Shown here: one piece after another, positions 9,206 through 55,165 of the stretch
Numbering within the stretch: the first letter of the stretch is position 1
How the letters are laid out: each line of letters starts with the position of its first letter
NCBI GenBank assembly: GCA_000091205.1
Contig: AP006486.2
DNA from: Cyanidioschyzon merolae
Taxonomy: Eukaryota
Strand: one strand, 5' to 3'
Length of the DNA stretch: 64,000 nucleotides
The notes under the pieces: model-generated
Database searches by the model: none
Seen by the model: the letters and a program-made list of their open reading frames with translations, nothing else
What the model was told of the DNA's origin: nothing
Made by a program: the position numbers and the translations under genes

Positions 9206-12200
9206 GCACCGCGTCTCGCACTGGCGATTTGAACGGCTGCGGCTGACGTCGCGCAGGCCGTTTGCTCTCGGAGTACTTGTATATAGTTTAGTACTAATAT
9301 GTTAATATGTGTTCAGCCTTGAGAATCATACGAGAATTGTTTCTCTGACAAAACATTCACGCACGCACTGGTCGTTTCGTATGCTCTATGTGTCGCCAAG
9401 TGCCTGGCGTGAGCGCCCGCAATAGCGCCTATAGCACCGGTGTAGTCGTAGCTCGGATAAAGGATGACTATGCCGTGCACCGGAGAGTGTCGGCTTGAGA
9501 GGATAAACTGATACACATTCAGAGACGCTTCCCAGCCGTTTTCGATCGGCCGACTGCCACCGGCTTCAGTTGCTCTTTGCACCATTCGAGCCTGAGAGGC
9601 TGCCCTACAAAGCTGGATTGCTTCAGCACCGCGTGTCTCGTCGTCAGCACCACATGTCGTCTGATCCTGATGGTGGTATTGAAGTCTTTGTTCACGAACT
9701 CCATGCGTTAGTTGCCACTAGTTGAATTCATCAATGCACGGATTCCTTGAAATCTTACCTTCTGTACCTCTGCAGGCTTGTCATCGTCAATTCGGGCAAA
9801 CACGTTTAAGCGACTGTCTCCCTTCTTCTCCGTCTTCTACGTTACCTGCTCTTCTTCTCGAAATGGTCGGAGAGAAGAGGATATTTTGGTTTCTTTGTTG
9901 AACCCGGTGTTGATTGCCCTCCGGGATTCCCGACTTATATGTCCCCAAGTTTTTCTCACATTTCTTATTTCTTCAAATGAAAGCACTTTTTGATGGCCTT
10001 CAGATGTGGACCTTACCCGACGAAGAAGGGCATGGAGAGGAAAGACGACACGTGCCCCCGTTTGTCACCGTGCCCCAGAAGCTTCAGCGATTCTCCCAGT
10101 TGAGCAGTGATTACGTTTCACGACAGAAAACTCTCCTTCGATGGGGTTGAATCACGTAGAGTGCGGAGGAATGCAAAACAGCTCTAGCCTGATGGAATTG
10201 GCAAAAGCTCGAACGCAACCGGAGTAGTGAAATGCCACGATGGCCAGTGAAGGGACCTCGCCAGACGTCAGGGGAAAGTCTTCAATGATTCGACGCAGTG
10301 GTTGATGCCATTATATGAGCCATCTCTACGAGCAAAATCTCGGGCGGCCAAATGAATCCGCTGCCGCCCGAACAAATGATGTCATCGTTCTCTGCGAGTT
10401 CGATCGTGCATACAACAGGCACCCCGCTCCGCGAATACCTGTACAGGTTACCATCGGATCGTCCGAGGGGAAGTTCATTGACTGGAAAAACAAACCGACG
10501 TTTCCGTGCTTCATACCGATCGCAACGTGCCTGCAACGCCATAATTTTGATTTCCGTCGAAGATGGCTGTGCATGCACTCGGACTTTCTTTTGCGACTAT
10601 ATCCCAGCGTTTTACGGGACCATACGAACAGGCTGCTGGGTACCGGTGACGCCCATGTCGACTCCTATTGTCGCATTTGCGTTCCATTAGGTAATCAACC
10701 GATCGCTTTCTATTCTTGAACGCAAACACGTTTTAAGAATATCGGGTTTTGGCGCGGAACGCATCACCTTCTTTCTTTAAATGTTCCTGAGCCATTCGGG
10801 TAATGTGTTATAACTGACCTGGAGGAGGAATGCAGTCCTCCTTGCACAGCTCAGTACAGAATCTATCTTAAATTCAATTCATCTACGATCTATACAGTAC
10901 ATGGCGACGTGATTTCAACCTCCTGCTATACACCCCAGCGGATGCGAAACAACATTGAGTTGAATGACTTTAAAACCCGGATGCATCGGCACCGCCAGCC
11001 TCCAAAGAAGCGATCAGCGCTCTGTTGCAGACGCGTGTACGTTCCGACTGTACTGGACCATTCTTGGCTTCGGGCGCAGCAGCTCGATCGATCCGAAGAC
11101 CTGTTGGGTAGCGAGTCTGCCTTTGGCGCTGGATTCGCCGGGTCTCGCTCGCGCAGGCAGAGCGCATAGACATGCAGGCGATGCGATACATCTACACACG
11201 TCGTTTCACGGTGCATGTGTCCTATGGATAGAAGCATCGCTCACGCGCCTGCTGGATCCGCGCTGCTGGTGAAGTTCGGCAAGGTTCCGCGAATCACGCG
11301 TTCAGAGTAACACTGGACAGGGGTCCGCCTGGAAGGCATTTTCAGCCCAGACGGATTTCTTCGTGCCTCTGGACGTGTGTGCAGTCTCATGTATGTGGTC
11401 GTTCAGTTGCGTCGAGTATACACTGCGGAATGGGGTTTTTTGGCGGCGGTCCATCGCGAGTAAGAGTAAGTCGCGTTGCCGCTAGGTATATCGGTATGCG
11501 TTTCTGGGCGTTTGGAAATGATGCTGGAGGCATTGAACCGATTCCCCAGAACACGCCCTACTGAAATTCAATGAGTTGTTCAGTACCCCGAGATACAAGC
11601 TGGCATGGCGATGACTTCATTGCAAACGCCCCGGCAACCGATGCAAATTGGCGTCCGCGCACAAGCTGTGCATGGAGGCAAGCTCCGGAGTCGATCGACC
11701 GACACAACTTGAAGAAGTAGGCGGGCACCCCAAAGCACACGTTTACGTGTGGCGCACCATCGGAATCAAGAATGATATGCTTTAACGGCGCGTAGGCCCG
11801 GGCTGCTTCTCGAGCCGACGGACGCGCGCGGACAAGCGGTCGATGCCGCAACTGCTTCCACAGGCACAAATAGATTTACGCGCTGATGTACATGCCGCCC
11901 ATTTGCACAGAAGGATCATCCCATGCGACAGACTCAGCTCTTCTTACTGCTTGTTTCTCGAGAAAATCTTTTGCTGTTACAGCACCGACGCTTCCCTGAC
12001 TCGCGATACCGCGTTCATGTGCATCCTCGGGGTATCACACGGGAGCACGGTATCGCGGTCGTCTTGGGTGCAGCGCGCATGAAGTCGTCCGACTCAAGCG
12101 CAGGCAAGAAGCAAGCAACAACTGCCGACGCTGCGCCCGCGTGCAACCCTCTGCGTCCCCGGCTCTGCCAGGGCCAAATCTTGACAACCACACAACTGAA

Positions 12201-24285: not shown

Positions 24286-25514
24286 TCACAGAAGAGATTC
24301 GGATGCCGCGGGACGGCACAAGACGTCCGAGCAGCTGGTGGCGTTCGGGTATCAAGGCATTGTACACGTTACGCGTTCTTCGGGGGCATGCACAGTCGAA
24401 GCATCAGCAGCGAGCATCTCGCAAAATGCGAGTACCGTCGACAATCGTGCGAATCATGGTAGCTACCGTACCTCTCGAGTAAGCCATGTTACCAGTTCTG
24501 ACCGTTCGTTGGCGCACAACCTGCAACAGTGAGCGCTGCACTGAACTCTGGTCCAGAATCGTTCCTATCGCGAGGCAAACTAGCGCGTAGACGCTCAAAT
24601 ATAGGAGTGGCGTGCTCGTTCCGGACCTACTGTATCGTGCCGCTCGTTTACACGTCGTCCATGAATGTGCGTGCGCGAAACGCGCTTCACTGCATGTGGT
24701 TCCACTGCCATTTGCAACACCGCGACACATCCACACCGCACTTAGACCGCGTGCGGCTACACTGCCAAACCGGATCCAGCGCCCAGCTATTCGCTCTGCC
24801 GCCTTCACAACCCGTGGCTGCGCAGCGGTGTCCCGCGTCAAGTGTCAAGCCTGTCGCGCCCGACTACTGCTCGTCTAGCCCGCTCGCACCAGCGCCATCA
24901 TTCGCCTGTTTCTGTTGCTGTCTGTCTCGTTTCCCTGGACGACTGTGTTGCTTTGCGTTCATCATCGTAAAGTAGAGACTGTAGACAGACTCTCGTTCCG
25001 CCGCACTAGCTGCTGCGTTTCCGCTCAGGTTAACACGTCTGCCGGGTGGACCACGAGGAACACGTTTCCGGTGCAAACGCGCATATTCCAAGTTGCGCAG
25101 CCGCTTCTCTTCCCGCAAGTCACGCCGTTGACGCATGAAGACTGACAGTGCTGCAGTGCCCGCCGAAGGGTACGGAGCACTGGAACGCTGCCTCGTTTCC
25201 ACTGCAGTTAATTTCTTCGAAGACGAAAGGAAAGCATATGAAGAATCTTTCGAAAAAGAAAGAGGTTTGAGTGATGAGATAAACATGACGTTCGATGGGT
25301 ACTTGGGAACGCCGCAACGCCACGAAACGACACCAAACGCCTTGCAGAAGAAAAACACTGCCGTGAGTGGTATTGTAGTGACGACGAACGCGTCTTGGAC
25401 AAACCATCTCCTGCTGACGGGCAGACGCCTCGCCGCCGTTCTCGACCGGCCACCCACGACTGGTTTCAACTTTTTCTCATATAGTTCTACTTTGAGAGGT
25501 TGTCCAACAAAATT

Positions 25515-27164
25515 CTATCTCGTCCACTCTGGAAGTCTATTCTCCAGCACCGCACATCTCCTTGTATTGATAGCGGCATTAATGTCTCGGTTCACAAACT
25601 CCATCCGTTTCTTGCCATCGTCGGTTGTACTTAATAATGCGAGTAGTCCACGAACTTTCGCTCTCCTTTCCATTTGCTCCTCCGTCAACGGTCCGTGCTT
25701 TGCTATTTCCTCAGGGCTCCGCTAATACGTTTCCATCTGGACCCTCTGGAGTGTACACCCCAGTTCATGGTGTGTATACGATGTTCGGAAGTCATCTACG
25801 GGCATCGTAACGAAACGCCGTGCGCACTCCTTGCACGTTTTTGTCGTTGGAGCTGGTGTAATGCCTTTTTTCGACGCCCAGCGCCCTGCTCCGTACGCTA
25901 CTACGAGCCTCTGACTTTCATTCTCCCTCCGGGCGCTCAACTGATTGAAAAAGTTCGAGAACGCCCGCTGCTTCCCACAACAGAAATTCATACGCAAACG
26001 AGCCCACCGGGGCTTGGTGGATTCTTTCCACAGGGCATCCCAATGAGCAGCGCGAACTTCCATGAACTCCCGAAATGCTTCAAAGTCGGTTCCTCGGCTC
26101 GTCACCTCGCTCAAAGCTTCCAGGTGATCCCTCACTCCTGAATTCCATCCAACGATTTTCATCCTCGCATTCATTATACCGGATTCCCGGTAATATCTAG
26201 CTCTTGACAACCTCAGCAGACGCTTGTCTTTATGACGTCAATTGTCGTCGACACTATCTTCCGCACGCTTGGGTACAGCGATGGTTATGATATTTGTGTT
26301 TCCGGGGTCCGCGCCAACGACAAAGCCGTTATCGTGCGCTTTCTGTGTTGCACGATCCACCTCCTTCTTTTCTCGATGCTTCGCCGCGCCAACGACAAAG
26401 CCGTTATCGTGCACTTCGTGTGTCGCAGGATCCTCCTTCTTCGTACCTTCATCCTTCGCCACGGGCGGAGCTGGACGATCTGTCTTCAAGCGCCGATAGT
26501 GTACAGACATGGCTACTCCATCGCTTTCGATCATCCCAGTGAATACCTTTCGCTTGCTCACTTTCAGACGTTTGAAATCGGCGAAATTCTTCTTCCAGTG
26601 CGTCTCCCGGCTTTCGCCGGAGAACTCCTCCCTGCTGACATGGAACTCGGGACTGATCTCCCTCATGATGCCGTAAAGGACGCCTGAATCGATAGTCACG
26701 AAATGTGACCTGATGTTGCACATTGGAACCACGTTGAAGCGCTTCCCCATTAGGAAAGCCTTCCGCCTCTCCCACTCCTCATTTGTCTCCTCATTCAGCT
26801 TCATTTCCGCCTTGCGTTCCAGCTCTCCGTCCAGAAACACGAAATAGCGCAGGGCGAGGCGATAGTATCTTTCCTTATCTTTTTTCGACTCTGATATCTT
26901 GTCTGTTGGACTCAGCAGCCCCAGTGCCGCACGGTGCTCTTCTACAACCGCACGGATGACAGAAGCTTCATTCGTGCTCTCGTTTGACGCCTTGTCTCCG
27001 ACGAATTCGATCTCCTGTTCATGCTGGCGATCGTTCGTGACGCCATTGGTAATCGCCCATTTTCCTTTGCGAGCGATGCCAGGGTACAGCGCAAACACGG
27101 CGCGTATCATGAAGCGTTCGAGGTTCATAGTCAAATGGTTCTTCAGGTTCGTGATGTACTTCAT
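25515..27164 (-). pseudogene. TnpB/Fanzor-like RuvC nuclease ORF (copy 1), interrupted
   Basis: RuvC-I-like [14 protein letters not shown]; RLVVAYGAGRW block; zinc-finger TCKECARRF...HHELGC; RuvC-III NRDINAAINIRRR after an in-frame TAG. There is an extra stop after ...DSVDDN. Confidence 0.55.
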
Positions 27165-28068
27165 CGCTCCGTATGTGTAAATGCACCAGTCAATTTTGTA
27201 TCGAGTACCGTCGAAGCTCTAAAAGGGATGTTTTTCGTGGAGGGCATGCACTAGCACACTTTCCCTCGGCGCTTCCGCTGCACCAAGCATCAGCTGTCGA
27301 ATAAAGGTCTTATCGAGAAACCCGTCCGGAATCCCGACCGTTTCCACCTGCGCCACGTCGCGATACATCTCCCTCGCCATATGCATCAGTCCTGACGACG
27401 CCTTGACAATACTCTTGGAGTATGACGCAACACTGTTTTCGATAGCGTCTCGCAGCTTTTCCCTGTACGGATCCTTGATATGTTTAAGAAGACAGACTTT
27501 GACGACCTACTTGTCGCACAGTCGTCTTTCGTGCCGCCTTCGACGCAGAGCGTCCCCCTTTCAGTCCTTCTTCTCTTCCTTTTCTTCTGGACTTGGCACT
27601 GTTTTTCTGTTTTTTCTGGCAGCCAGCGACACTGGGCCTCCAGGATCGTCGACTTGCTTTTCATAACTTCCTTTTTTTGTTTTTTTGGAAAACAACGCTC
27701 CCTCCAACGCCTCTGATATAAACAGCGAGGAAAACTTGAATAAACCAAACTGAGGGTTGAAATATAACTGAACTGAAAAGTACACTCTGCTATGACTTTA
27801 ACGCAAATGCAACTTGTACTTGAGAGCAACACGCTCAAGATCGCGATCCCGTTTCCCTTCAACGGCGAGACGCGTCGCGTTAGTTGACTGCCCGATCTCC
27901 CAGATGCGCCCACCGAGCGCGATTCTTTTTTTTCATGGACAAAACGTGTGCATAGGCCAGTGCTCTCGGATTATGCGCATTTTTCTTTTCTTTCTCTTTT
28001 ATTTTGTGTTTAACTTCAGTGCGCGGTAATGTATCTATAAAGCCCCCTCCCTCCAAGTTACATTACCT

Positions 28069-34061: not shown

Positions 34062-34889
34062 ATGTTGGGCGTGATTGGTGGCACGTCGCTGTTCCACTCA
34101 CAGCGCTTTGCGGGCTTTGACAGACGACACGTCCATACACCATACGGGGAGGTCGTCTGCTATTGCGACAGTACAGAACCGTCTCTGGTATTCTTGCAGC
34201 GGCACCATGCGGACGCTCATCGTGGTGTTGACGCGTATACGCCTCCACACCGTATAAACCATCGTGCAAACCTGTACGCCTTAAAGCAAGTCGGCGTGGA
34301 CCGCTGTGTAGGTGTCTACAGTGTCGGATCTCTGAACCCCGCAATTCGAGTAGGGACCTGTGTGCTTACCCACGACTTTTGCTCCCTCGCGCAACTCTGT
34401 CGGGCGGAAACGTTTTATGACGAGGACATGCGAGGCCACGCAGTCATCCGCTTTGATCAGATGCTTCGCGACCGAGTTCTGACGTCGCTCAAGGATCTGT
34501 CTGCTGCTTCCCAGATTGGCGATTCGAAGACAGCAGAAACGTCGTCTAAGCAGTCGTTTGTCATGGCTTCAACGGCTTCTGCAGCAATGAGTTTCCACGA
34601 CGGTGGCGTTTACGTGCAAACCGCTGGACCCCGCTTCGAGACACCTGCCGAGGTTCGCATGCTGCGAACGTTCGGAGACGTGGTAGGTATGACTGGTGCC
34701 TCCGAGGCCGTCTGCTGTGGCGAGCTGGGAATCCCCTACATGCAAGTCTGCTTTGTCGATAACCTGGCGAATGGTCTGATCAGTGGAGCAGAACAAACGG
34801 AGATTGCTGAATTTCACGACAATGTGAAGGCTAATCTCAAACGCGTAGAGGTAATTATTGACCGAGTGATTGAGACGTTGCGACATTGA
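34062..34889 (+). CDS. S-methyl-5'-thioadenosine phosphorylase (MTAP; PNP/MTAP family)
   Basis: MLGVIGGTSL... N-terminus and ...VQTAGPRFETPAEVRMLRTFGDVVGMTGASEAVCCGELGIPYMQVCFVDNLANG... are MTAP hallmarks. Start placed at the internal Met; the track ORF begins at 33924. Stop codon is TGA. Confidence 0.8.
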   Translation: MLGVIGGTSLFHSQRFAGFDRRHVHTPYGEVVCYCDSTEPSLVFLQRHHADAHRGVDAYTPPHRINHRANLYALKQVGVDRCVGVYSVGSLNPAIRVGTCVLTHDFCSLAQLCRAETFYDEDMRGHAVIRFDQMLRDRVLTSLKDLSAASQIGDSKTAETSSKQSFVMASTASAAMSFHDGGVYVQTAGPRFETPAEVRMLRTFGDVVGMTGASEAVCCGELGIPYMQVCFVDNLANGLISGAEQTEIAEFHDNVKANLKRVEVIIDRVIETLRH

Positions 34890-36453
34890 GCGCTGTAACC
34901 TGGGCAGGGTATTGCAAGGTCTCGCGCTATCTCGCTTGAACGCCTCGTATGAGTCGTTCACCCGTAGAACGCTTTGAAATGGTGTCGAAACTGGAGCTTG
35001 TCGGATTATACGAGCGCTCCTTTTATAATGGAATGCTTGGTGCGAAAAAAGTATCAAGTGACTGCGCATTGCTGGATATTCGAGCACGATGACAAATAGA
35101 TCATGGCCGTGACAAGCGGCATTCGGACCGGCAACGCGGCAGCTGAGATTGTCTATGGCGCCGAATGCATACAGACTTGCTCTACCAGTTCTTTTAGATC
35201 GAAAGAACATGCGTTCAAGGATATTCGTTCGTTCCATTGAATTTGGGGCTCATCGACAAGTGCCCGCTCAGGCGGAAGCATTCGCAGAGGAGCCATACCT
35301 CCATGCAAACGCTTGCGAGCATGCGTACGGTTTCGTGCACGAATACATGCATACGCTCACAGAAAAACTCAGACAAATGCATATGAATACTAGCCCCGAT
35401 GCGTTGATACATGAGCATCTACCCGTGCACGTGCATACACGAACGTTCACCGCCGTGTACCTCGCTGCAGAAAAGACAAGTGCCTAACGTGCTTGATGGC
35501 GTTTGGCATCGAGGGTTCACCTCTCGGAAAGCATCGCATGCAGCCGGTGATCCGAAACGGATTCCAAAAGTCTCTGGATTCAGAGATACCAATATCAGGA
35601 AACTCTCTGTCGATCAACCGCAAGCAAGCAAGATTGTGCTTTGCAGCGTCGCTGTGCTCCATCAAGATCCATAAACATTTGCTCAACTCCATTATACCGT
35701 TGTTGTTGCATGATGCGAGACATTCACGTAGCGTATCCGCAAGCAAACGCGAGGTTTTTACAGTCTAGAACCCAGCCGGGGCATCGTTCGCGGCAATATT
35801 GGGCACTCAGGCTCCTGTGCTGACGCAGACCAGACTCTCGGTGTCGAGCTGCTACGCACACCCCGCGTATAACATAACATATGAGACAGGTACACATCTG
35901 TTTGCTCCATGCACGCCGGATGTAACCAAGGTCCCCACTGATGCGTGCTGGTCATTGGTCGTCGGGAAATCGATCACCATTACCACCATCATGATCATCA
36001 TTTTCAGCACTTGTCCGCTGGAGAATTGCTCGGCTCTTCTGTCCACGCATGCGGCAGCGTGCACTGCGCAGGGCCTGTAGAGACCATCACCCTACACGCA
36101 AATACTGAAAGCCTCGATCCCATCTTGGTCCACGCGAACGTTCTTACGTACGACCCGTGCACATGCAGGCGCCATTGTATTCACTGAATGAAACGAGTAC
36201 GAGCGGCGCGCGTGAACGCTCATCATTCCTTTCACGAAACTGGGGAAGCTGTGGACCAGGAGCCACGTCCAAGGCCAAGCGCCACCCGATTCAGTGTTTC
36301 GCATCTTGCCTCTTTCGATATCAAGCCTTGGGAAATGCGATCAGAGCGGACGCTCATCCGAACTCCACCCTTTGCAGTTCATGTCATGGGTGTGTACGTC
36401 CCGCGTCCAGAGAGATACCTCACAAACTGAAGGTGATCAGCGTGCGTCTCGCT

Positions 36454-37944
36454 CTAGTTCCGTGAAGCGTGTCGTGTGGTAGCAGCATAGCTGCCGTCCT
36501 CACCTCGCTGAGACCCCAGCGTGCGTATGCGCTGGTGCCAGTGTCGGATACGCTCAACGAGTTTCGCTTGCGAAATCGTCTGCAGTACTCCATCGTGGAC
36601 CACCCGGCGAGCACCTATCCAAACATCCGTCACTTGGTCCGGTCCCGCTCCATAAACCAAAGCCGAACACACATCGTGCACAGGCATTGTTGAGAGGCCA
36701 TCTGCAACTCGTACGGCAATGAAATCGGCTGCCTTGCCAGGTTCCAAGGAACCCAGCAAGTGGTCCAGTCCCAGTGCTCGGGCGCCTTGAATCGTCGCCA
36801 TACGCAGCACCTGATAGGCCGTAAGGCAATCGCTGCGACCTGTACTTCCTTTGGCCAAGAGCGCTGCAAGGCGCATCTCAGCCCACATGTCGAGTCGGTT
36901 GTTACTGGCAGCGCTGTCCGTTCCGAGGGCGACGTTGATGCCGGCGTCCAGCATCTTGGTAAGCGGAAAAACACCACTGCCCAGTTTCAAATTCGACGCT
37001 GGACAGTGCACGACCGAGGCACCTCTCCTGCGCACCAGCTCGATATGCGCATCCGTCACATGCACCATGTGCACAAGAGTCCAGTTTGCAGCCAACAGGC
37101 CGAGTCGCTCTAAGTTGTCCAGTGGCGCACCTGCAAACTCGCTGCGGTGGCAGACAAGTACCCCACGATCCAGCGTTTGACTCGCCTTCACCTCCGCAGC
37201 TGTCTCGTGCATGTGGATGTGCACCCGTCGGCCTTCATCCATCGCTCGTTTCCCGACCTCACGGAGGATTTCCTCTGATACCGAGTAAGTTGCATGGGGC
37301 GCGTAGCTGCTTTCCATTAAGGGAATCTCCCGGTGGGGATTTTCTGGCGAGTCCTTTAGGGTGCCTTCTGCGATGATCTGCGTCAAGCGGCTCGCTTTTT
37401 GAAAGTATTCTTCTGGGCCAGAGCCGTAGCGGCTCGGAAAGTCCACCACGACCATGCCGAGCACTGCACGCATGCCGGCTTCCCGGCACACTTGCGCGGT
37501 GACCTCTGGATACCAGTACATATCGTTTAGGGTGGTGCAACCGCTTCGCAGCAGTTCCGCAACCGCCAGCATGCTACCGTCACGAACAAAGTGCTCGTCG
37601 ACCAGTTCGCGTTCCAGTGGCCAGATCACGCTACGCAGCCAGGTGTCTAGCGCTTGATCGTCTCCAAGTCCTCGAAACAGGCTCATGGCAGCGTGTGTGT
37701 GCGCGTTGATCAGACCAGGAAGCAGAGCGTGCTCAGAGAGGCACACTCGCTCGGCGCTGGGGTACCGCTTCCACGCCTCTTCTCGCGGAAGAACGGCCGC
37801 TATCCGGTCACCCTCTAGAACAAGCGCGTGATCTTCCAGCCATAGCGGCTCGTTGGCATGGGTTTCATCCCATACTGGAAGCAGCCACCGCGCAGCTACC
37901 ACTTGTTGAGCGACGGAACGAGCGCTCCCACGAACCAGGGCCAT
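36454..37944 (-). CDS. metal-dependent amidohydrolase of the MtaD type (5'-methylthioadenosine/S-adenosylhomocysteine deaminase-like; TRZ/ATZ family)
   Basis: PGLINAHTHAAMSLFRGLGDD (HxH metal site), ...VHIHMHET..., ...HCPASNLKLGSGVFPLTKMLDAGINVALGTDSAASNNRLDMWAEMRLAAL... Stop codon is TAG. Confidence 0.7.
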   Translation of the reverse strand: MALVRGSARSVAQQVVAARWLLPVWDETHANEPLWLEDHALVLEGDRIAAVLPREEAWKRYPSAERVCLSEHALLPGLINAHTHAAMSLFRGLGDDQALDTWLRSVIWPLERELVDEHFVRDGSMLAVAELLRSGCTTLNDMYWYPEVTAQVCREAGMRAVLGMVVVDFPSRYGSGPEEYFQKASRLTQIIAEGTLKDSPENPHREIPLMESSYAPHATYSVSEEILREVGKRAMDEGRRVHIHMHETAAEVKASQTLDRGVLVCHRSEFAGAPLDNLERLGLLAANWTLVHMVHVTDAHIELVRRRGASVVHCPASNLKLGSGVFPLTKMLDAGINVALGTDSAASNNRLDMWAEMRLAALLAKGSTGRSDCLTAYQVLRMATIQGARALGLDHLLGSLEPGKAADFIAVRVADGLSTMPVHDVCSALVYGAGPDQVTDVWIGARRVVHDGVLQTISQAKLVERIRHWHQRIRTLGSQRGEDGSYAATTRHASRN

Positions 37945-48785: not shown

Positions 48786-48794
48786 ACCGACAAC

Positions 48795-51340
48795 GAATGC
48801 CTTTTACAAGAAAAAACGTTGCTGCCGCAAGTGGTATAGTAGTGGCGACAAACGCACCGTAGACAAGGAGTCTTCAGCCGACGTGCAGACGCATCTCAGT
48901 CTTTCTCGACCGGCCACCCACTACTTCTTCCAACATTTTTTCATATAGTTCGAGTTTGAGAGGTTGTCCAACAAAATTCTATCTCGTCCACTCTGGAAGT
49001 CTATTCTCCAGCACCGCACGTCTCCTTATATTGATAGCGGCATTAATGTCTCGGTTCACAAACTCCATCCGTTTCTTGCCATCACTGGATGTACTTAATA
49101 ATGCGAGTAGTCCACGAACTTTCGCTCTCCTTTCCATTTGCTCCTCCGTCAACGGTCCGTGCTTTGCTATTTCCTCAGGGCTCCGCTAATACTTTTCCAT
49201 CTCGACCCTCTGAAGTGTACACCCCAGTTCATGGTGTGTATACGATGTTCGGAAGTCATCTACGGGTATCGTAACGAAACGCCGTGCGCACTCCTTGCAC
49301 GTTTTTGTCGTTGGAGCTGGTGTAATGCCTTTTTTCGACGCCCAGCGCCCTGCTCCATACGCTACTACGAGCCTCTGACTTTCATTCTCCCTCAGGGCGC
49401 TCAACTGATTGAAAAAGTTCGAGAACGCCCGCTGCTTCCCACAATACAAATTCATACGCAAACGAGCCCACCGGGGCTTGGTGGATTCTTTCCACAGGGC
49501 ATCCCAATGAGCAGCGCGAACTTCCATGAACTCCCGAAATGCTTCAAAGTCGGTTCCTCGGCTCGTCACCTCGCTCAAAGCTTCCAGGTGATCCCTCACT
49601 CCTGACTTCTAGGTCTCATTTTGTTTCCTCGCATTCATTATACCGGAATCCCGGTAGGATCTCGCTCTCGGGAACTTGAAAACTCGCATGTCTTTATGAC
49701 GTAAATTGTCGTCGACACTATCTTCCGCACGCTTGGGTACAGCGACGGTTATGATATTTGTGTTTCCGGGGTCCGCGCCAACGACAAAGCCGTTATCGTG
49801 CACTTTCTGTGTTGCACGATCCACCTCCTTCTTTTCTCGATGCTTCGCCGCGTCAACGACAAAGCCGTTATCGTGCACTTCGTGTGTCGCAGGATCCTCC
49901 TTCTTCGTACCTTCATCCTTCGCCACGGGCGGAGCTGGACGATCTGTCTTTAAGCGCCGATAGTGTACAGACATGGCTACTCCATCGTTTTCGATCATCC
50001 CAGTGAATACCTTTCGCTTGCTCACTTTCAGACGTTTGAAATCGACGAAATTCTTCTTCCAGTGCGTCTCCCGGCTTTCGCCGGAGAACTCCTCCCTGCT
50101 GACATTGAACTCCGGACTGATCTCCCTCATGATGCCGTAAAGGACGCCTGAATCGATAGTCACGAAATGTGACCTGATGTTGCACATTGGAACCACGTTG
50201 AAGCGCTTCCCCATTAGGAAAGCCTTCCGCCTCTCCCACTCTTCATTTGTCTCCTCATTCAGCTTCATTTCCGCCTTGCGTTCCAGCTCTCCGTCCAGCA
50301 ACACGAAATAGCGCAGGGCGAGGCGATAGTATCTTTCCTTATCTTTTTTCGACTCTGATAGCTTGTCTGTTGGACTCAGCAGCCCCAGTACCGCACGATG
50401 CTCTTCTACAACCGCACGGATGACAGAAGCTTCATTCGTGCTCTCGTTTGACGCCTTCTCTCCGACGAATTCGATCTCCTGTTCATGCTTGCGATCGTTC
50501 GTGACGCCATTGGTAATCGCCCATTTTCCTTTGCGAGCGATGCCAGGGTACAGCGCAAACACGGCGCGTATCATGAAGCGTTCGAGGTTCATAGTAAAAT
50601 GGTTCTTCAGGTTCCTGATGTACTTCATCGCTCCGTATGTGTAAATGCACCAGTCAATTTTGTATCGAGTACCGTCGAAGCTCTAAAAGGGATGTTTTTC
50701 GTGGAGGGCATGCACTAGCACATTTTCCCTCGGCGCTTCCGCTGTACCAAGCATCAGGTGTCGAATAAAGGTCTTATCGAGAAACCCGTCCGGAATCCCG
50801 ACCGTTTCCATCTGCGCCACGTCGCGATACATCTCCCTCGCCATATGCATCAGTCCTGAAGACGCCTTGACAATACTCTTGGAGTATGACGCAACACTGT
50901 TTTCGATAGCGTCTCGCAGCTTTTCCCTGTACGGATCCTTGATATTTTTAAGAAGACAGACTTTCACCACCTTCTTGTCGCACAGTCGTCTTTCGTGCCG
51001 CCTTCGACGCAGAGCGTCCCACTTTCAGTCCTTCTTCTCTTCCTTTTCTTCTGGACTTGGCACTGTTTTTCTGTTTTTTCTGGCAGCCCGCGACACTGGG
51101 CCTCCAGGATCATCGACTTGCTTTTCATAACTTCCTTTTTTTTGTTTTTTTTTGGAAAACAACGCTCCCTCCAACGCCTCTGATATAAACAGCGAGGAAA
51201 ACTTGAATAAACCAAACTGAGGGTTGAAATATAACTGAACTGAAAAGTACACTCTGCTATGACTTTAACGCAAATGCAACTTGTACTTGAGAGCAACACG
51301 CTCAAGATCGCGATCCCGTTTCCCTTCAACGACGACATGC
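48795..51340 (-). mobile_element. Fanzor/TnpB-bearing repeat element, copy 2 (5'-truncated), left arm of a head-to-head inverted pair
   Basis: Homologous to copies 1 and 3 from the 3' region through the nuclease ORF. Ends at the junction string gttgaagggaaacgggatcgcgatc..., lacking its own 5' region. Confidence 0.6.
48979..50628 (-). pseudogene. TnpB/Fanzor-like RuvC nuclease ORF (copy 2), interrupted
   Basis: Same motifs as the other copies; private frameshift/stop after ...ARKQNET plus the shared in-frame TAG before RuvC-III. Confidence 0.55.
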
Positions 51341-54300
51341 GCGTCGTATCTCATGCCTGCCAGATATGGAGGTGCGCGTATCGACCGCGATGCCCCCTGG
51401 CACTGTATGGGCCGAGGGGCCCACCATGCGCACCCGGTTCAGTCGGATATCCATGCAGACCCCAACGCACCGCAAGAACACTTGGATGAAATCGATGCAG
51501 ATTTGGCTGAAGCGACGGTTATGCGAAAACACGCTCGAATCGTTCCCCAGAAATGTAGAAGGCTCCTACCGCCTCAAGCGAACTGTTCGAACAACCATAT
51601 GGGAACGTAGACACGGAACCAGTCGCGCCAGTAACGCCCGCCTTGACTCTATACCGGAACTACAACCTAGCATACACATGCGAGTACTGGTGGGAGGCGC
51701 TGGAGTTCCCGGGACTTGCTCGCGGTATCCAGTGGCTCGCCAAAATCCGCGTTGGTGGTTGCTGACTACCAGCACCTGCGCTAAACCATATAGGAACACT
51801 GGAATCGCAGTGGGAATCACACTGTCCCTGCTGTGGAAACGATAAACCCGAGACGCTGACATATTTAGGCTTACAGTGCGCGCGCTGGAAGCAGGAGCGC
51901 AGCGAGCTCCTTGAAGGACGGCATCAGCCGGGTATCACCGTGATAGTCGAAGGCCGGACACTCACTTTGAGTGCAGCACTGGCAACTGATGGTCCGCTAA
52001 CGGAGCCTCAGCGCTCATTCGTGGCCAACAGACTCACGTGCTACCTTCCAAGCGGAAGGTCTAGCGAATCGGACGCGCACACGGGTTTAGTATGCTTTCT
52101 GCGCCTATCCACTGTGGTGAGCGTCAAGCACAAACCCGCATTGCCAACCGACAACAACGCGTTCCATGCATGATCACGAAGGAGAGAGACGACTCCCAGA
52201 ATATATCTTAACGGCCAAGTGTCTCCAGCGTGTCGTGCCGCGAAGGCAAGCTTGCATCCGCAGACCGTCCGAGCACAAACTGACGACGAGACCCGATTCT
52301 ACGTCGGGTGAAGCACCCCTCGAGCCGACGCCCTCTGTGGTATGGAAAAGCCGTTCTAGCTCGATAAACTCTCTGCCCCAGCGGTTCAAGCGCAAAGGCG
52401 GATATGGAACGGCAGGTATTAGGTACCCACGACAGGACGTATGAGACGATCAGTATCTCCAAGAAGAAGTATAGGTAATGTAACTTGGAGGGAGGGGGCT
52501 TTATGGATATATTACCGCGCGCTGAAGTAAAACGCAAAACAAAAGAGAACGAAAAGAAAAAGCGCACAATAGGAGAATGCTGGCCCAAGTAAACGTCTTA
52601 TCAATAGAAAAATTGCCGTCGTTGAAGGGAAACGGGATCGCGATCTTGAGCGTGTTGCTCTCAAGTACAAGTTGCATTTGCGTTAAAGTCATAGCAGAGT
52701 GTACTTTTCAGTTCAGTTATATTTCAACCCTCAGTTTGGTTTATTCAAGTTTTCCTCGCTGTTTATATCAGAGGCGTTGGAGGGAGCGTTGTTTTCCAAA
52801 AAAAACAAAAAAAAGGAAGTTATGAAAAGCAAGTCGATGATCCTGGAGGCCCAGTGTCGCGGGCTGCCAGAAAAAACAGAAAAACAGTGCCAAGTCCAGA
52901 AGAAAAGGAAGAGAAGAAGGACTGAAAGTGGGACGCTCTGCGTCGAAGGCGGCACGAAAGACGACTGTGCGACAAGAAGGTCGTCAAAGTCTGTCTTCTT
53001 AAACATATCAAGGATCCGTACAGGGAAAAGCTGCGAGACGCTATCGAAAACAGTGTTGCGTCATACTCCAAGAGTATTGTCAAGGCGTCTTCAGGACTGA
53101 TGCATATGGCGAGGGAGATGTATCGCGACGTGGCGCAGATGGAAACGGTCGGGATTCCGGACGGGTTTCTCGATAAGACCTTTATTCGACACCTGATGCT
53201 TGGTACAGCGGAAGCGCCGAGGGAAAATGTGCTAGTGCATGCCCTCCACGAAAAACATCCCTTTTAGAGCTTCGACGGTACTCGATACAAAATTGACTGG
53301 TGCATTTACACATACGGAGCGATGAAGTACATCAGGAACCTGAAGAACCATTTTACTATGAACCTCGAACGCTTCATGATACGCGCCGTGTTTGCGCTGT
53401 ACCCTGGCATCGCTCGCAAAGGAAAATGGGCGATTACCAATGGCGTCACGAACGATCGCAAGCATGAACAGGAGATCGAATTCGTCGGAGAGAAGGCGTC
53501 AAACGAGAGCACGAATGAAGCTTCTGTCATCCGTGCGGTTGTAGAAGAGCACCGTGCGGCACTGGGGCTGCTGAGTCCAACAGACAAGATATCAGAGTCG
53601 AAAAAAGATAAGGAAAGATACTATCGCCTCGCCCTGCGCTATTTCGTGTTTCTGGACGGAGAGCTGGAACGCAAGGCGGAAATGAAGCTGAATGAGGAGA
53701 CAAATGAGGAGTGGGAGAGGCGGAAGGCTTTCCTAATGGGGAAGCGCTTCAACGTGGTTCCAATGTGCAACATCAGGTCACATTTCGTGACTATCGATTC
53801 AGGCGTCCTTTACGGCATCATGAGGGAGATCAGTCCCGAGTTCCATGTCAGCAGGGAGGAGTTCTCCGGCGAAAACCGGGAGACGTACTGGAAGAAGAAT
53901 TTCGTCGATTTCAAACGTCTGAAAGTGAGCAAGCGAAAGGTATTCACTGGGATGATCGAAAGCGATGGAGTAGCCATGTCTGTATAGTATCGGCGCTTGA
54001 AGACAGATCGTCCAGCTCCGCCCGTGGCGAAGGATGAAGGTACGAAGAAGGAGGATCCTGCGACACACGAAGTGCACGATAACGGCTTTGTCGTTGACGC
54101 GGCGAAGCATCGAGAAAAGAAGGAGGTGGATCGTGCAACACAGAAAGTGCACGATAACGGCTTTGTCGTTGGCGCGGACCCCGGAAACACAAATATCATA
54201 ACCGTCGCTGTACCCAAGCGTGCGGAAGATAGTGTCGACGACAATTTACGTCATAAAGACAAGCGTCTGCTGATGTTGTCAAGAGCTAGATATTACCGGG

Positions 54301-55165
54301 AATCCGGTATAATGAATGCGAGGAAGAAAATCGTTTCATGGAATTCAGGAATGAAAGATCACCTGGAAGCTTCGAGCGAGGTTACGAGCCGAGGAGCCGA
54401 CTTTGAAGCATTTCGGGAGTTCATGGAGGCTCGCGCTGCTCATTGGGATGCCCTGTGGAAAGAATCCACCAAGCCCCGGTGGGCTCGTTTGCGTATGAAT
54501 TTCTGTTGTGGGAAGCAGCGGGCGTTTTCGAACTTTTTCAATCAGTTGAGCGCCCGGAGGGAGAATGAAAGTCAGAGGCTCGTAGTAGCATACGGAGCAG
54601 GGCGCTGGAAGACCCAAAAGGGACTATGCCAGCTCCAACGACAAAAACGTGCAAGGAGTGCGCACGGCGTTTCGTTACGATGCCCGTAGATGACTTCCGA
54701 ACATCGTATACACACCATGGACTGGGGTGTACACTCCAGAGGGTCCAGATGGAAAAGTATTAGCGGAGCCCTGAGGAAATAGCAAAGCACGGACCTTTGA
54801 CGGAAGAGCAAATGGAAAGGAGAGCGAAAGTTCGTGGACTACTCGCATTATTAAGTACATCCAGTGATGGCAAGAAACGGATGGAGTTTGTGAACCGAGA
54901 CATTAATGCCGCTATCAATATAAGGAGACGTGCGGTGCTGGAGAATAGACTTCCAGAGTGGACGAGATAGAATTTTGTTGGACAACCTCTCAAACTCGAA
55001 CTATATGAAAAAATGTTGGAAGAAGTAGTGGGTGGCCGGTCGAGAAAGACTGAGATGCGTCTGCACGTCGGCTGAAGACTCCTTGTCTACGGTGCGTTTG
55101 TCGCCACTACTATACCACTTGCGGCAGCAACGTTTTTCTTTCGAAAGGCGTTCGCTAGCAGCCTT
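51341..55165 (+). mobile_element. Fanzor/TnpB-bearing repeat element, copy 3 (with 5' region), right arm of the inverted pair
   Basis: The 5' region 51535-52625 matches copy 1 27870-29025 in inverted orientation. The body 52625-55165 is the inverted duplicate of 48795-51340. Confidence 0.6.
53322..54969 (+). pseudogene. TnpB/Fanzor-like RuvC nuclease ORF (copy 3; most contiguous), interrupted by in-frame stops
   Basis: ...[16 protein letters not shown] (RuvC-I) ... [18 protein letters not shown] ... RLVVAYGAGRW ... C-x2-C zinc finger ... EKY-TAG-RSPEEIAKHGPLTEEQMERRAKVRGLLALLSTSSDGKKRMEFVNRDINAAINIRRRAVLENRLPEWTR (RuvC-III). A private TAG sits at 53988. An in-frame 95 aa N-terminal extension (about 52980-53270) is separated from the main ORF by a single TAG. 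Confidence 0.6.

Follow-up and report, generated by a model that had tools for sequence, protein, structure and literature searches.

5′-Methylthioadenosine (MTA) is a by-product of polyamine synthesis. In one route for its recycling, described for Pseudomonas aeruginosa and Methanocaldococcus jannaschii, MTA is deaminated to 5′-methylthioinosine (MTI), from which hypoxanthine is then released (PMC6302742). The P. aeruginosa enzymes PA3170 and PA3004 follow this two-step logic from MTA through MTI to hypoxanthine and 5-methylthioribose-1-phosphate, and M. jannaschii employs the deaminase DadD (MJ1541) followed by the hypoxanthine-nucleoside phosphorylase MtiP (MJ0060) on MTA and 5′-deoxyadenosine derivatives (PMC6302742). 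Here we examine a convergent gene pair in a window of 64,000 nucleotides, the whole stretch of DNA analysed, from the red alga Cyanidioschyzon merolae (contig AP006486.2 of assembly GCA_000091205.1). A phosphorylase gene occupies positions 34062-34889 on the plus strand and an amidohydrolase gene positions 36454-37944 on the minus strand. The pair had been noticed in a preliminary description of this DNA and is real: both open reading frames (ORFs) coincide exactly with the coordinates given there, and both products are identical to GenBank proteins. Sequence comparison and gene context make it likely, though well short of certain, that the two products act consecutively in a deaminase-first salvage of S-adenosylmethionine by-products.

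The C. merolae enzymes, whose activities are predicted, resemble the Pseudomonas pair in several respects. The deaminase and PA3170 belong to one PRK09045 clade. The phosphorylase carries the Glu/Asn base signature of PA3004, whose structure (PDB 3ozb) is its best match by both sequence and fold. It is nevertheless no orthologue of PA3004: the two are ∼28% identical, the C. merolae protein scores 147 bits where the curated cut-off for PA3004-type enzymes is 223, and it has an invariant Asp-Asn where PA3004 has Val-Asn. The C. merolae genes are also neighbours in a eukaryotic nucleus, unlike PA3170 and PA3004, which we take to be non-adjacent in Pseudomonas.

A comparable route is reported from a parasite. 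The adenosine deaminase and purine nucleoside phosphorylase (PNP) of Plasmodium falciparum, in work attributed to Ting and colleagues in 2005, reportedly deaminate MTA before phosphorolysis and recover hypoxanthine. The resemblance to the C. merolae pair is one of analogy, as the Plasmodium enzymes are non-homologous (ADA family and hexameric PNP family) and serve a parasite with reduced purine metabolism.

A predicted 6-oxopurine pocket in the phosphorylase

The phosphorylase ORF (34062-34889, plus strand) runs from ATG to TGA and encodes 275 amino acids. Its product is identical to C. merolae 10D protein BAM79228.1, named in GenBank as ‘similar to methylthioadenosine phosphorylase mtaP’, and it matches the Pfam family PNP_UDP_1 (1.3e-28). 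The best NCBIfam model is TIGR01694, for MTA phosphorylase (MTAP), at 172.4 bits, which is below the curated equivalog cut-off of 274.85; the PNPH model gives 60 bits. On NF006599/PRK09136, the model for PA3004-type MTI phosphorylase (MTIP), the score of 147.4 bits is likewise below the curated cut-off of 223. By these scores the protein fits neither MTAP nor PA3004-type MTIP. Relatives that share its Asp-Asn motif, which we call DN-type phosphorylases, score 149-192 bits on TIGR01694, and all those tested are below both the MTAP and the MTIP cut-offs.

Structural comparison gives a similar picture. The top PDB match by sequence and by fold is 3ozb, which is P. aeruginosa MTIP with hypoxanthine, and human MTAP comes next. 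The AlphaFold2 model of the C. merolae protein has a predicted local distance difference test (pLDDT) score of 84.8 and TMq values of 0.66-0.75 to MTIP and MTAP structures. Canonical MTAPs (human 1cb0; Sulfolobus 1v4n and 2a8y) therefore share its fold and family, and two of their features are retained in C. merolae. One is the Met-Thr motif (Met210-Thr211, 34689-34694, plus strand), in which Met210 is invariant and Thr211 nearly invariant in a 14-sequence alignment. The other is the invariant Arg47-His48 pair (34200-34205, plus strand), which aligns with Arg60-His61 in the ARHGRQH segment of human MTAP and presumably binds phosphate.

The residues that contact the base differ from those of MTAP. 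The register of the base pocket was set across the compared enzymes by the conserved M-[TS] motif; the human MTAP sequence used for this equals that of 1cb0 (100% identity), and the residue numbers of human PNP agree with the PDB. Human and S. tokodaii MTAP, both acting on 6-aminopurines, have Ser (Ser178 in GPRFSS of the human enzyme; GPRFST in S. tokodaii) and, 23 residues past M-[TS], the Asp of a TDYD segment (Asp220 in human MTAP). The 6-oxopurine enzymes instead carry Glu and Asn at these two positions, namely Glu201 (GPSFET) and Asn243 (TN) in human PNP and the corresponding residues of GPRLET and VN in P. aeruginosa MTIP. The C. merolae phosphorylase has Glu193 in GPRFET (34638-34640, plus strand) and Asn234 in Asp233-Asn234 (34758-34763, plus strand), so that Ser178, Asp220 and Asp222 of human MTAP are replaced by Glu193, Asn234 and Ala236. 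Glu193 is invariant in an alignment of 14 diverse homologues, and none of the 119 homologues retrieved departs from Asp233-Asn234. Asp233 itself (34758-34760, plus strand), an invariant residue of DN-type phosphorylases, is Thr in human PNP and MTAP and Val in P. aeruginosa MTIP.

The significance of these positions is known from the model enzymes. Glu201 of human PNP contacts N1-H of 6-oxopurines, and Erion and Stoeckler are said to have established in 1997 that Glu201 and Asn243 specify such bases. In MTAP, Asp220 (and Asp222) reportedly bind N6 and N7 of adenine, a finding credited to Appleby in 1999. Because Glu193 and Asn234 match human PNP and P. aeruginosa MTIP rather than the Ser/Asp of MTAP, a preference for 6-oxopurines is predicted. 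The enzyme is probably a hypoxanthine-nucleoside phosphorylase for 6-oxopurines such as MTI, 5′-deoxyinosine and inosine, and not an MTAP. Since it nonetheless belongs to the MTAP and not the PNP family, 5′-methylthio- or 5′-deoxy-inosine is its probable substrate.

None of the curated equivalog models scanned covers the DN-type proteins, and our PDB comparison contained no solved structure of one. They constitute a large separate subfamily, in which we identified no characterised member.

The amidohydrolase belongs to an MTA-deaminase clade

The second ORF (36454-37944, minus strand) extends from ATG to TAG and encodes a PRK09045-type amidohydrolase of 496 amino acids, a predicted deaminase of MTA and of 5′-deoxyadenosine or adenosine. 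The protein is identical to BAM79229.1 of C. merolae 10D, which GenBank names ‘probable N-ethylammeline chlorohydrolase’, and matches the Pfam family Amidohydro_1 (5.1e-70). Its score on PRK09045 is 517.2 bits against a curated cut-off of 540, with the next NCBIfam model at 304 bits; the orthologues from Cyanidium and Cyanidiococcus score 533 bits on the same model. On the guanine deaminase model TIGR02967, which has a cut-off of 375 bits, the C. merolae protein reaches 170 bits.

The five best PDB matches (4f0r, 3lnp, 4dzh, 4dyk and 4gbd) score 335-347 bits, and the first of them is titled ‘5-methylthioadenosine/S-adenosylhomocysteine deaminase’. We take 4f0r to be Cv1032 of Chromobacterium violaceum and 4dyk and 4gbd to be PA3170. 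Weaker matches are obtained with 8-oxoguanine deaminase (176 bits), Tm0936 (159 bits), atrazine chlorohydrolase (128 bits) and guanine deaminases (84-99 bits). A neighbour-joining (NJ) tree of 92 deaminase sequences places the cyanidiophyte proteins in one clade (100% bootstrap) nested among bacterial PRK09045 proteins with PA3170 and Cv1032. The larger group, which unites the cyanidiophytes with PA3170, Cv1032 and 58 bacterial homologues, is split in 100 of 100 bootstraps from the deaminases found in operons with DN-type phosphorylases (see below). All our trees are NJ trees with Kimura correction only, and they do not resolve deep branches such as the sister group of the eukaryotic deaminases.

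By profile score and tree position, the amidohydrolase is a member of the MTA-deaminase clade of PA3170 and Cv1032 and not a guanine deaminase or atrazine hydrolase. The MtaD-type assignment of the preliminary description is borne out by the PRK09045 and PDB scores and by this nesting. Clustering with guanine or cytosine deaminases or with atrazine hydrolases, which that description had named as an outcome that would speak against it, was not seen (scores of at most 176 bits; 100% bootstrap separation).

The catalytic set of subtype-III amidohydrolases is complete in the alignment (H82, H84, H244, E247, H292 and D343). The HxH metal ligands are His82-Thr83-His84 (37693-37701, minus strand, as are all positions that follow), confirmed in alignments and in the checked translation. 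The HxxE motif, His244-Met-His-Glu247, provides a metal ligand and the catalytic Glu (37204-37215). His292 in a VHM motif (37069-37071) is taken as the strand-6 catalytic His, and Asp343 in GTDSAASNN (36916-36918) aligns as the strand-8 metal ligand. A further segment from Trp102 to Glu111 (37612-37641) is also well conserved, with W102 present in 90 and E111 in all of the 92 aligned deaminases. On alignment to the Tm0936 sequence, these two residues presumably equal Trp75 and Glu84 of that enzyme, ribose contacts according to a role that Hermann and colleagues are said to have reported in 2007.

Two bacterial loci (L091 and L092) illustrate the surroundings of related deaminases. In Methylomagnum, a gammaproteobacterial PRK09045-type deaminase adjoins a UbiG-like methyltransferase. 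In Endothiovibrio, a close homologue and an IF-2B/MtnA-family gene are divergent neighbours, which ties the deaminase family to methionine salvage.

Operons and gene fusions support coupling of the two enzymes

A survey of prokaryotes with a phosphorylase profile, each species represented by a single genome, yielded 80 loci (L005-L084), 76 of them evaluable. In 42 of these 76, a deaminase homologue lies directly downstream on the same strand in a translationally coupled operon, mostly with a 4-bp overlap of stop and start codons (for example L007, 10001-11961). The bacterial loci recovered with the profile include Syntrophorhabdia, Magnetococcales, Solirubrobacterales, Acidimicrobiia and Holophagae, and the archaeal ones Methanosarcinales/ANME-2, Altiarchaeota, Thermoplasmata and DPANN lineages; the Verrucomicrobia and Bathyarchaeia loci of the survey have no downstream deaminase. 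In the sampled operons neither the phosphorylase nor the deaminase attains a curated equivalog cut-off.

The C. merolae locus resembles these operons in that a DN-type phosphorylase has a homologous MtaD/DadD-like amidohydrolase as its immediate neighbour. The arrangement differs, since the prokaryotic genes share a strand with the phosphorylase upstream, whereas the C. merolae genes converge with 1,564 bp between them. The type of deaminase differs as well, being PRK06038-like in the archaeal and bacterial operons and of the PRK09045 type in C. merolae.

The same two domains are also found in single polypeptides. A profile search with four cyanidiophyte deaminases, followed by an exhaustive search with the fusion from the red alga Compsopogon caeruleus, uncovered at least 15 divergent phosphorylase-deaminase fusions, the Compsopogon protein among them (P0337, P0356, P0358-P0363 and P0368-P0379). 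The Compsopogon protein (A0A7S1TIE0) has 730 amino acids, with PNP_UDP_1 at residues 3-249 (including GPRFET and VDNYANG) and Amidohydro_1 at 324-685. Transcript isoforms encode 763 amino acids, 730 amino acids and a 504-amino-acid deaminase alone that starts within the linker; their differences are confined to the linker, a pattern suggestive of an intron within a genuine fusion gene. The exhaustive search added at least 14 full-length fusions, 697-795 amino acids long and mutually less than 50% identical, as well as several partial ones, and one is encoded by a single 2,121-nt ORF on a 2.3-kb contig (L095, 47-2167). The amino-acid composition of the fusion proteins varies very widely, suggesting that they come from many different organisms.

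All of the fusions carry both motif sets (GPRFET and VDNxANG; HxH and HxxE), and most also have the deaminase insertion typical of eukaryotes that is described below. They differ from the C. merolae pair in being one polypeptide with the phosphorylase N-terminal, rather than two genes on opposite strands. Three other eukaryote-type deaminases, P0330, P0339 (L093, 8001-10217) and P0365, have an extra N-terminal domain of ∼185-270 amino acids. The idea that the ∼270-residue domain of P0330 and P0339 is a degenerate phosphorylase found no support: it has no Pfam match in either protein, and hhalign put the probability of a match to the phosphorylase at 0.8% for P0330. These extra domains may be degenerate phosphorylases or something unrelated.

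Among cyanidiophytes the pair itself is retained. A metagenome contig of Cyanidioschyzon/Cyanidiococcus type (L001) has the same tail-to-tail genes beside Nop14, at 71% and 66% identity and with a gap of 771 bp. A Cyanidium caldarium-like contig (L004) has the same convergent pair at 52% and 51% identity. There the stop codons are only 37 bp apart (11524-11562), so the 3′ ends of the transcripts must overlap or be extremely short. The block from Sec1 to Nop14 is collinear between C. merolae and L001, and because the pair sits inside such generally conserved synteny, its conservation among cyanidiophytes counts as a single event and is weak evidence alone. Taken with the operons and fusions, the gene context indicates that the two genes are functionally coupled. 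This agrees with the functional gene neighbourhood that had been suggested when the pair was first noticed.

A probable deaminase-first route and its alternatives

The two enzymes probably act in sequence because the base pocket of the phosphorylase is in the 6-oxopurine state. The amidohydrolase, predicted from its family and its intact catalytic residues to be a zinc deaminase, would irreversibly convert MTA to MTI. As its relatives are reported to be promiscuous, it would probably also convert 5′-deoxyadenosine to 5′-deoxyinosine. With phosphate, the phosphorylase would then split MTI into hypoxanthine and 5-methylthioribose-1-phosphate, a step proposed from its residue signature and genomic context, and 5′-deoxyinosine into hypoxanthine and 5-deoxyribose-1-phosphate. 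The products would enter the methionine cycle and the salvage of hypoxanthine. In C. merolae, the convergent genes would be the split version of a unit that prokaryotes encode as a two-gene operon and other eukaryotes as one bifunctional polypeptide.

Several observations weigh against this consecutive route. Three curated equivalog cut-offs are missed (172 versus 275 bits for MTAP, 147 versus 223 for MTIP and 517 versus 540 for PRK09045). Members of the deaminase clade reportedly differ in their use of MTA, S-adenosylhomocysteine (SAH), adenosine and 5′-deoxyadenosine, as Hitchcock and colleagues are said to have found in 2013. The MTAP-like PNP of Pyrococcus furiosus is likewise said to have 6-oxopurine specificity for inosine and guanosine, on which grounds the C. 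merolae phosphorylase could be a general purine salvage enzyme. The operon-partner deaminases, at 31-39% identity, are PRK06038-like and not of the C. merolae type. In Porphyridium, Balamuthia and Saprolegnia, moreover, the phosphorylase gene has no deaminase within 10 kb.

A coupled pair could also serve mainly to dispose of 5′-deoxyadenosine, a by-product of radical S-adenosylmethionine enzymes, or to salvage adenosine through inosine to hypoxanthine, with MTA handled elsewhere. We regard this as unlikely but worth taking seriously, for the M. jannaschii enzymes are promiscuous, DadD being named a 5′-deoxyadenosine deaminase and MtiP being active on six nucleosides (PMC6302742). The operon partners of DN-type phosphorylases also score 232-398 bits on the 5′-deoxyadenosine deaminase model, although PRK06038 and the rest of their top models score higher. 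Against this, the characterised proteins closest to the C. merolae deaminase are labelled MTA or MTA/SAH deaminases, and the Endothiovibrio homologue adjoins a methionine-salvage gene of the MtnA family. The phosphorylase, too, belongs to the MTAP rather than the PNP family (172 versus 60 bits). It is improbable that the adjacency has no meaning at all and that an unrelated phosphorylase and amidohydrolase have simply been kept together by cyanidiophyte synteny. The collinearity of the Sec1-Nop14 block, which makes pair conservation non-independent, and the phosphorylase genes of other eukaryotes that lack an adjacent deaminase would fit such a view. It is strongly disfavoured by the operons in 42 of 76 prokaryotic loci and by the fusions in Compsopogon and at least 14 divergent proteins. 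Immediate adjacency of two named genes would in addition arise by chance with a probability of ∼4e-4, assuming ∼4,800 genes in C. merolae.

The preliminary description had both enzymes acting on MTA, that is, a genuine MTA phosphorylase beside a parallel and competing MTA deaminase. TIGR01694 is indeed the best NCBIfam model for the phosphorylase, and its GenBank name points the same way. The protein falls 100 bits short of the curated MTAP cut-off, however, and Glu193, Asn234 and Ala236 stand in place of the Ser and Asp residues of MTAP, as in 6-oxopurine enzymes; fusion or operon linkage with a deaminase would also hardly be sensible for two competing enzymes. We consider this reading very improbable, and of the two possibilities raised in that description the alternative, an MTA-to-MTI route, is the one favoured here. 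Bacterial contamination, or very recent transfer of a bacterial operon, can be given almost no credence. Outside eukaryotes, the deaminase has its nearest relatives in Gammaproteobacteria, at 44-49% identity, but the context refutes such an origin: the genes lie between Sec1, a Skp1-like ORF and Nop14 on a 513-kb chromosome. Their orientation is convergent, their GC content at third codon positions (GC3) is within the range of their neighbours, and bacterial promoter or terminator motifs are no more frequent than expected by chance. Three cyanidiophyte genera have orthologues, and the eukaryotic copies have an insertion in common. The flanking signs of contamination that might have undermined the first description are thus absent.

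Origin of the gene pair

The nearest relatives of the C. merolae deaminase outside eukaryote-like sequences are those gammaproteobacterial proteins. An insertion of 11 residues directly after HxxE (amino acids 253-263, approximately SQTLDRGVLVC, just before HRS; ∼37156-37188, minus strand, with alignment-dependent boundaries) is found in all eukaryote-type copies (the cyanidiophytes, Compsopogon, P0330, P0339 and most fusions) and in none of the bacterial homologues examined. P0339 lies on a eukaryotic contig. The insertion follows the pattern LD[RK]xxxxC just before a conserved HxS and holds a conserved Cys-His pair. Monophyly of the eukaryotic deaminases has 69% NJ bootstrap. The phosphorylase groups at 78% NJ bootstrap with those of Porphyridium, Rhodella, Palmaria, Eucheuma, oomycetes and Balamuthia, and the neighbouring prokaryotic branch in that tree is a group that includes Magnetococcales.

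By these comparisons the deaminase is of proteobacterial type and was acquired long ago, and its acquisition is not specific to cyanidiophytes. Any transfer must be ancient, because the insertion is common to the eukaryotic copies and GC3 resembles that of neighbouring genes. The horizontal acquisition proposed in the first description therefore stands in part: the proteobacterial type of the deaminase agrees with it, and a recent or cyanidiophyte-specific transfer does not survive the insertion in Compsopogon and others or the GC3 values. Horizontal transfer of a deaminase into cyanidiophytes, beside a vertically inherited phosphorylase, was likewise abandoned as an explanation in view of the insertion-sharing deaminases, many of them fused, of Compsopogon and other sequences.

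The gene order of the fusions is that of the prokaryotic operon, which suggests that both genes were transferred together as an operon. Secondary pairing is also possible, because the sampled operon partners are PRK06038-like and so of a different deaminase subfamily. A tentative scenario, and one we would not favour over its negation, is that a bacterial operon was taken up by an early eukaryote or red alga, became a fusion widespread in protists and algae, and was split into an inverted pair in Cyanidiophyceae. The route borne by DN-type phosphorylases may then have replaced MTAP or MTA nucleosidase in these organisms. For the Cyanidium lineage, Rossoni 2019 lists an ‘adenine deaminase OG0005683’ as a candidate for horizontal transfer, which may or may not correspond to the gene described here. 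An oomycete homologue appears among the ‘algal genes’ of Phytophthora (PMC5592239).

Genomic setting of the locus

Four ORFs of the window, including both genes of the pair, are identical to GenBank proteins of one nuclear chromosome of 513,455 bp. The flanking genes are eukaryotic, encoding Sec1/Unc-18, a weak Skp1-like ORF and Nop14. GC3 is 0.572 for the phosphorylase and 0.614 for the deaminase gene, compared with 0.535-0.662 in 14 neighbouring ORFs, and codon usage is unremarkable. Scans of the locus found no Rfam families and no tRNAs, and bacterial promoter and terminator motifs were not above chance level. The spacer has no second copy in the window.

The spacer between the convergent stop codons (34890-36453; 1,564 bp) must contain the 3′ ends of both genes. 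It has no sequence similarity to the spacers of relatives, and comparison with these and within the window revealed no conserved or repeated element. An antisense ORF of 222 amino acids (34569-35237, minus strand) overlaps the 3′ part of the phosphorylase gene and runs on into the spacer; we presume that it arose by chance in GC-rich DNA. Within the phosphorylase, alignment and the AlphaFold2 model delineate a low-complexity loop of ∼30 residues rich in Ser, Ala and Thr (amino acids 147-176; 34500-34589, plus strand). Among the aligned homologues, C. merolae and its closest relative alone have the loop; all others, that of Cyanidium included, lack it. The model shows the loop as disordered, with pLDDT values below 50 at residues 164-172.

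Elsewhere in the window, a repeat of ∼2.5 kb occurs in three copies (25336-27877, 48794-51346 and 52614-55154) that are 95.8-97% identical, the third being inverted. In addition, 27929-29023 matches 51520-52612. Each copy encodes an ORF of 308-339 amino acids without a Pfam match, and, at 26-28 kb and 50-54 kb, GC and AT skew make excursions that coincide with the repeats. A mobile element and a multi-copy gene family are both possible identities.

Implications

The type of pathway proposed here is known, and the deaminase is in the characterised clade in every respect tested except that its score is 23 bits under the curated cut-off. Relatives of the two proteins carry the automated labels ‘MTA/SAH deaminase’, ‘6-oxopurine nucleoside phosphorylase’ and ‘putative MTI phosphorylase’. 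Our literature search found no paper on a deaminase-first route in red algae or on a phosphorylase-deaminase fusion, and a search on C. merolae chlorohydrolase, MTA and methionine salvage returned nothing relevant. Of more interest, as a by-product of the analysis, is how widely the fusion and the operon occur. The series of operon, neighbours and fusion is a ‘Rosetta stone’ case that would give a function to a large uncurated MTAP-like subfamily in bacteria, archaea and eukaryotes.

Both current gene names probably mislead metabolic reconstructions of C. merolae, a model alga that is amenable to genetics. If the consecutive route is correct, red algae would recycle the sulphur and purine of MTA via methylthioinosine and hypoxanthine rather than adenine, and dependence on HGPRT rather than APRT is predicted. 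MTA inhibits polyamine synthases as their product, and the route would remove it in a thermodynamically irreversible way, which may matter for thermoacidophiles. Should early uptake of the operon also prove true, many free-living eukaryotes would use deaminase-first salvage of MTA and 5′-deoxyadenosine as a main route, and it would be no peculiarity of Pseudomonas, methanogens and Plasmodium.

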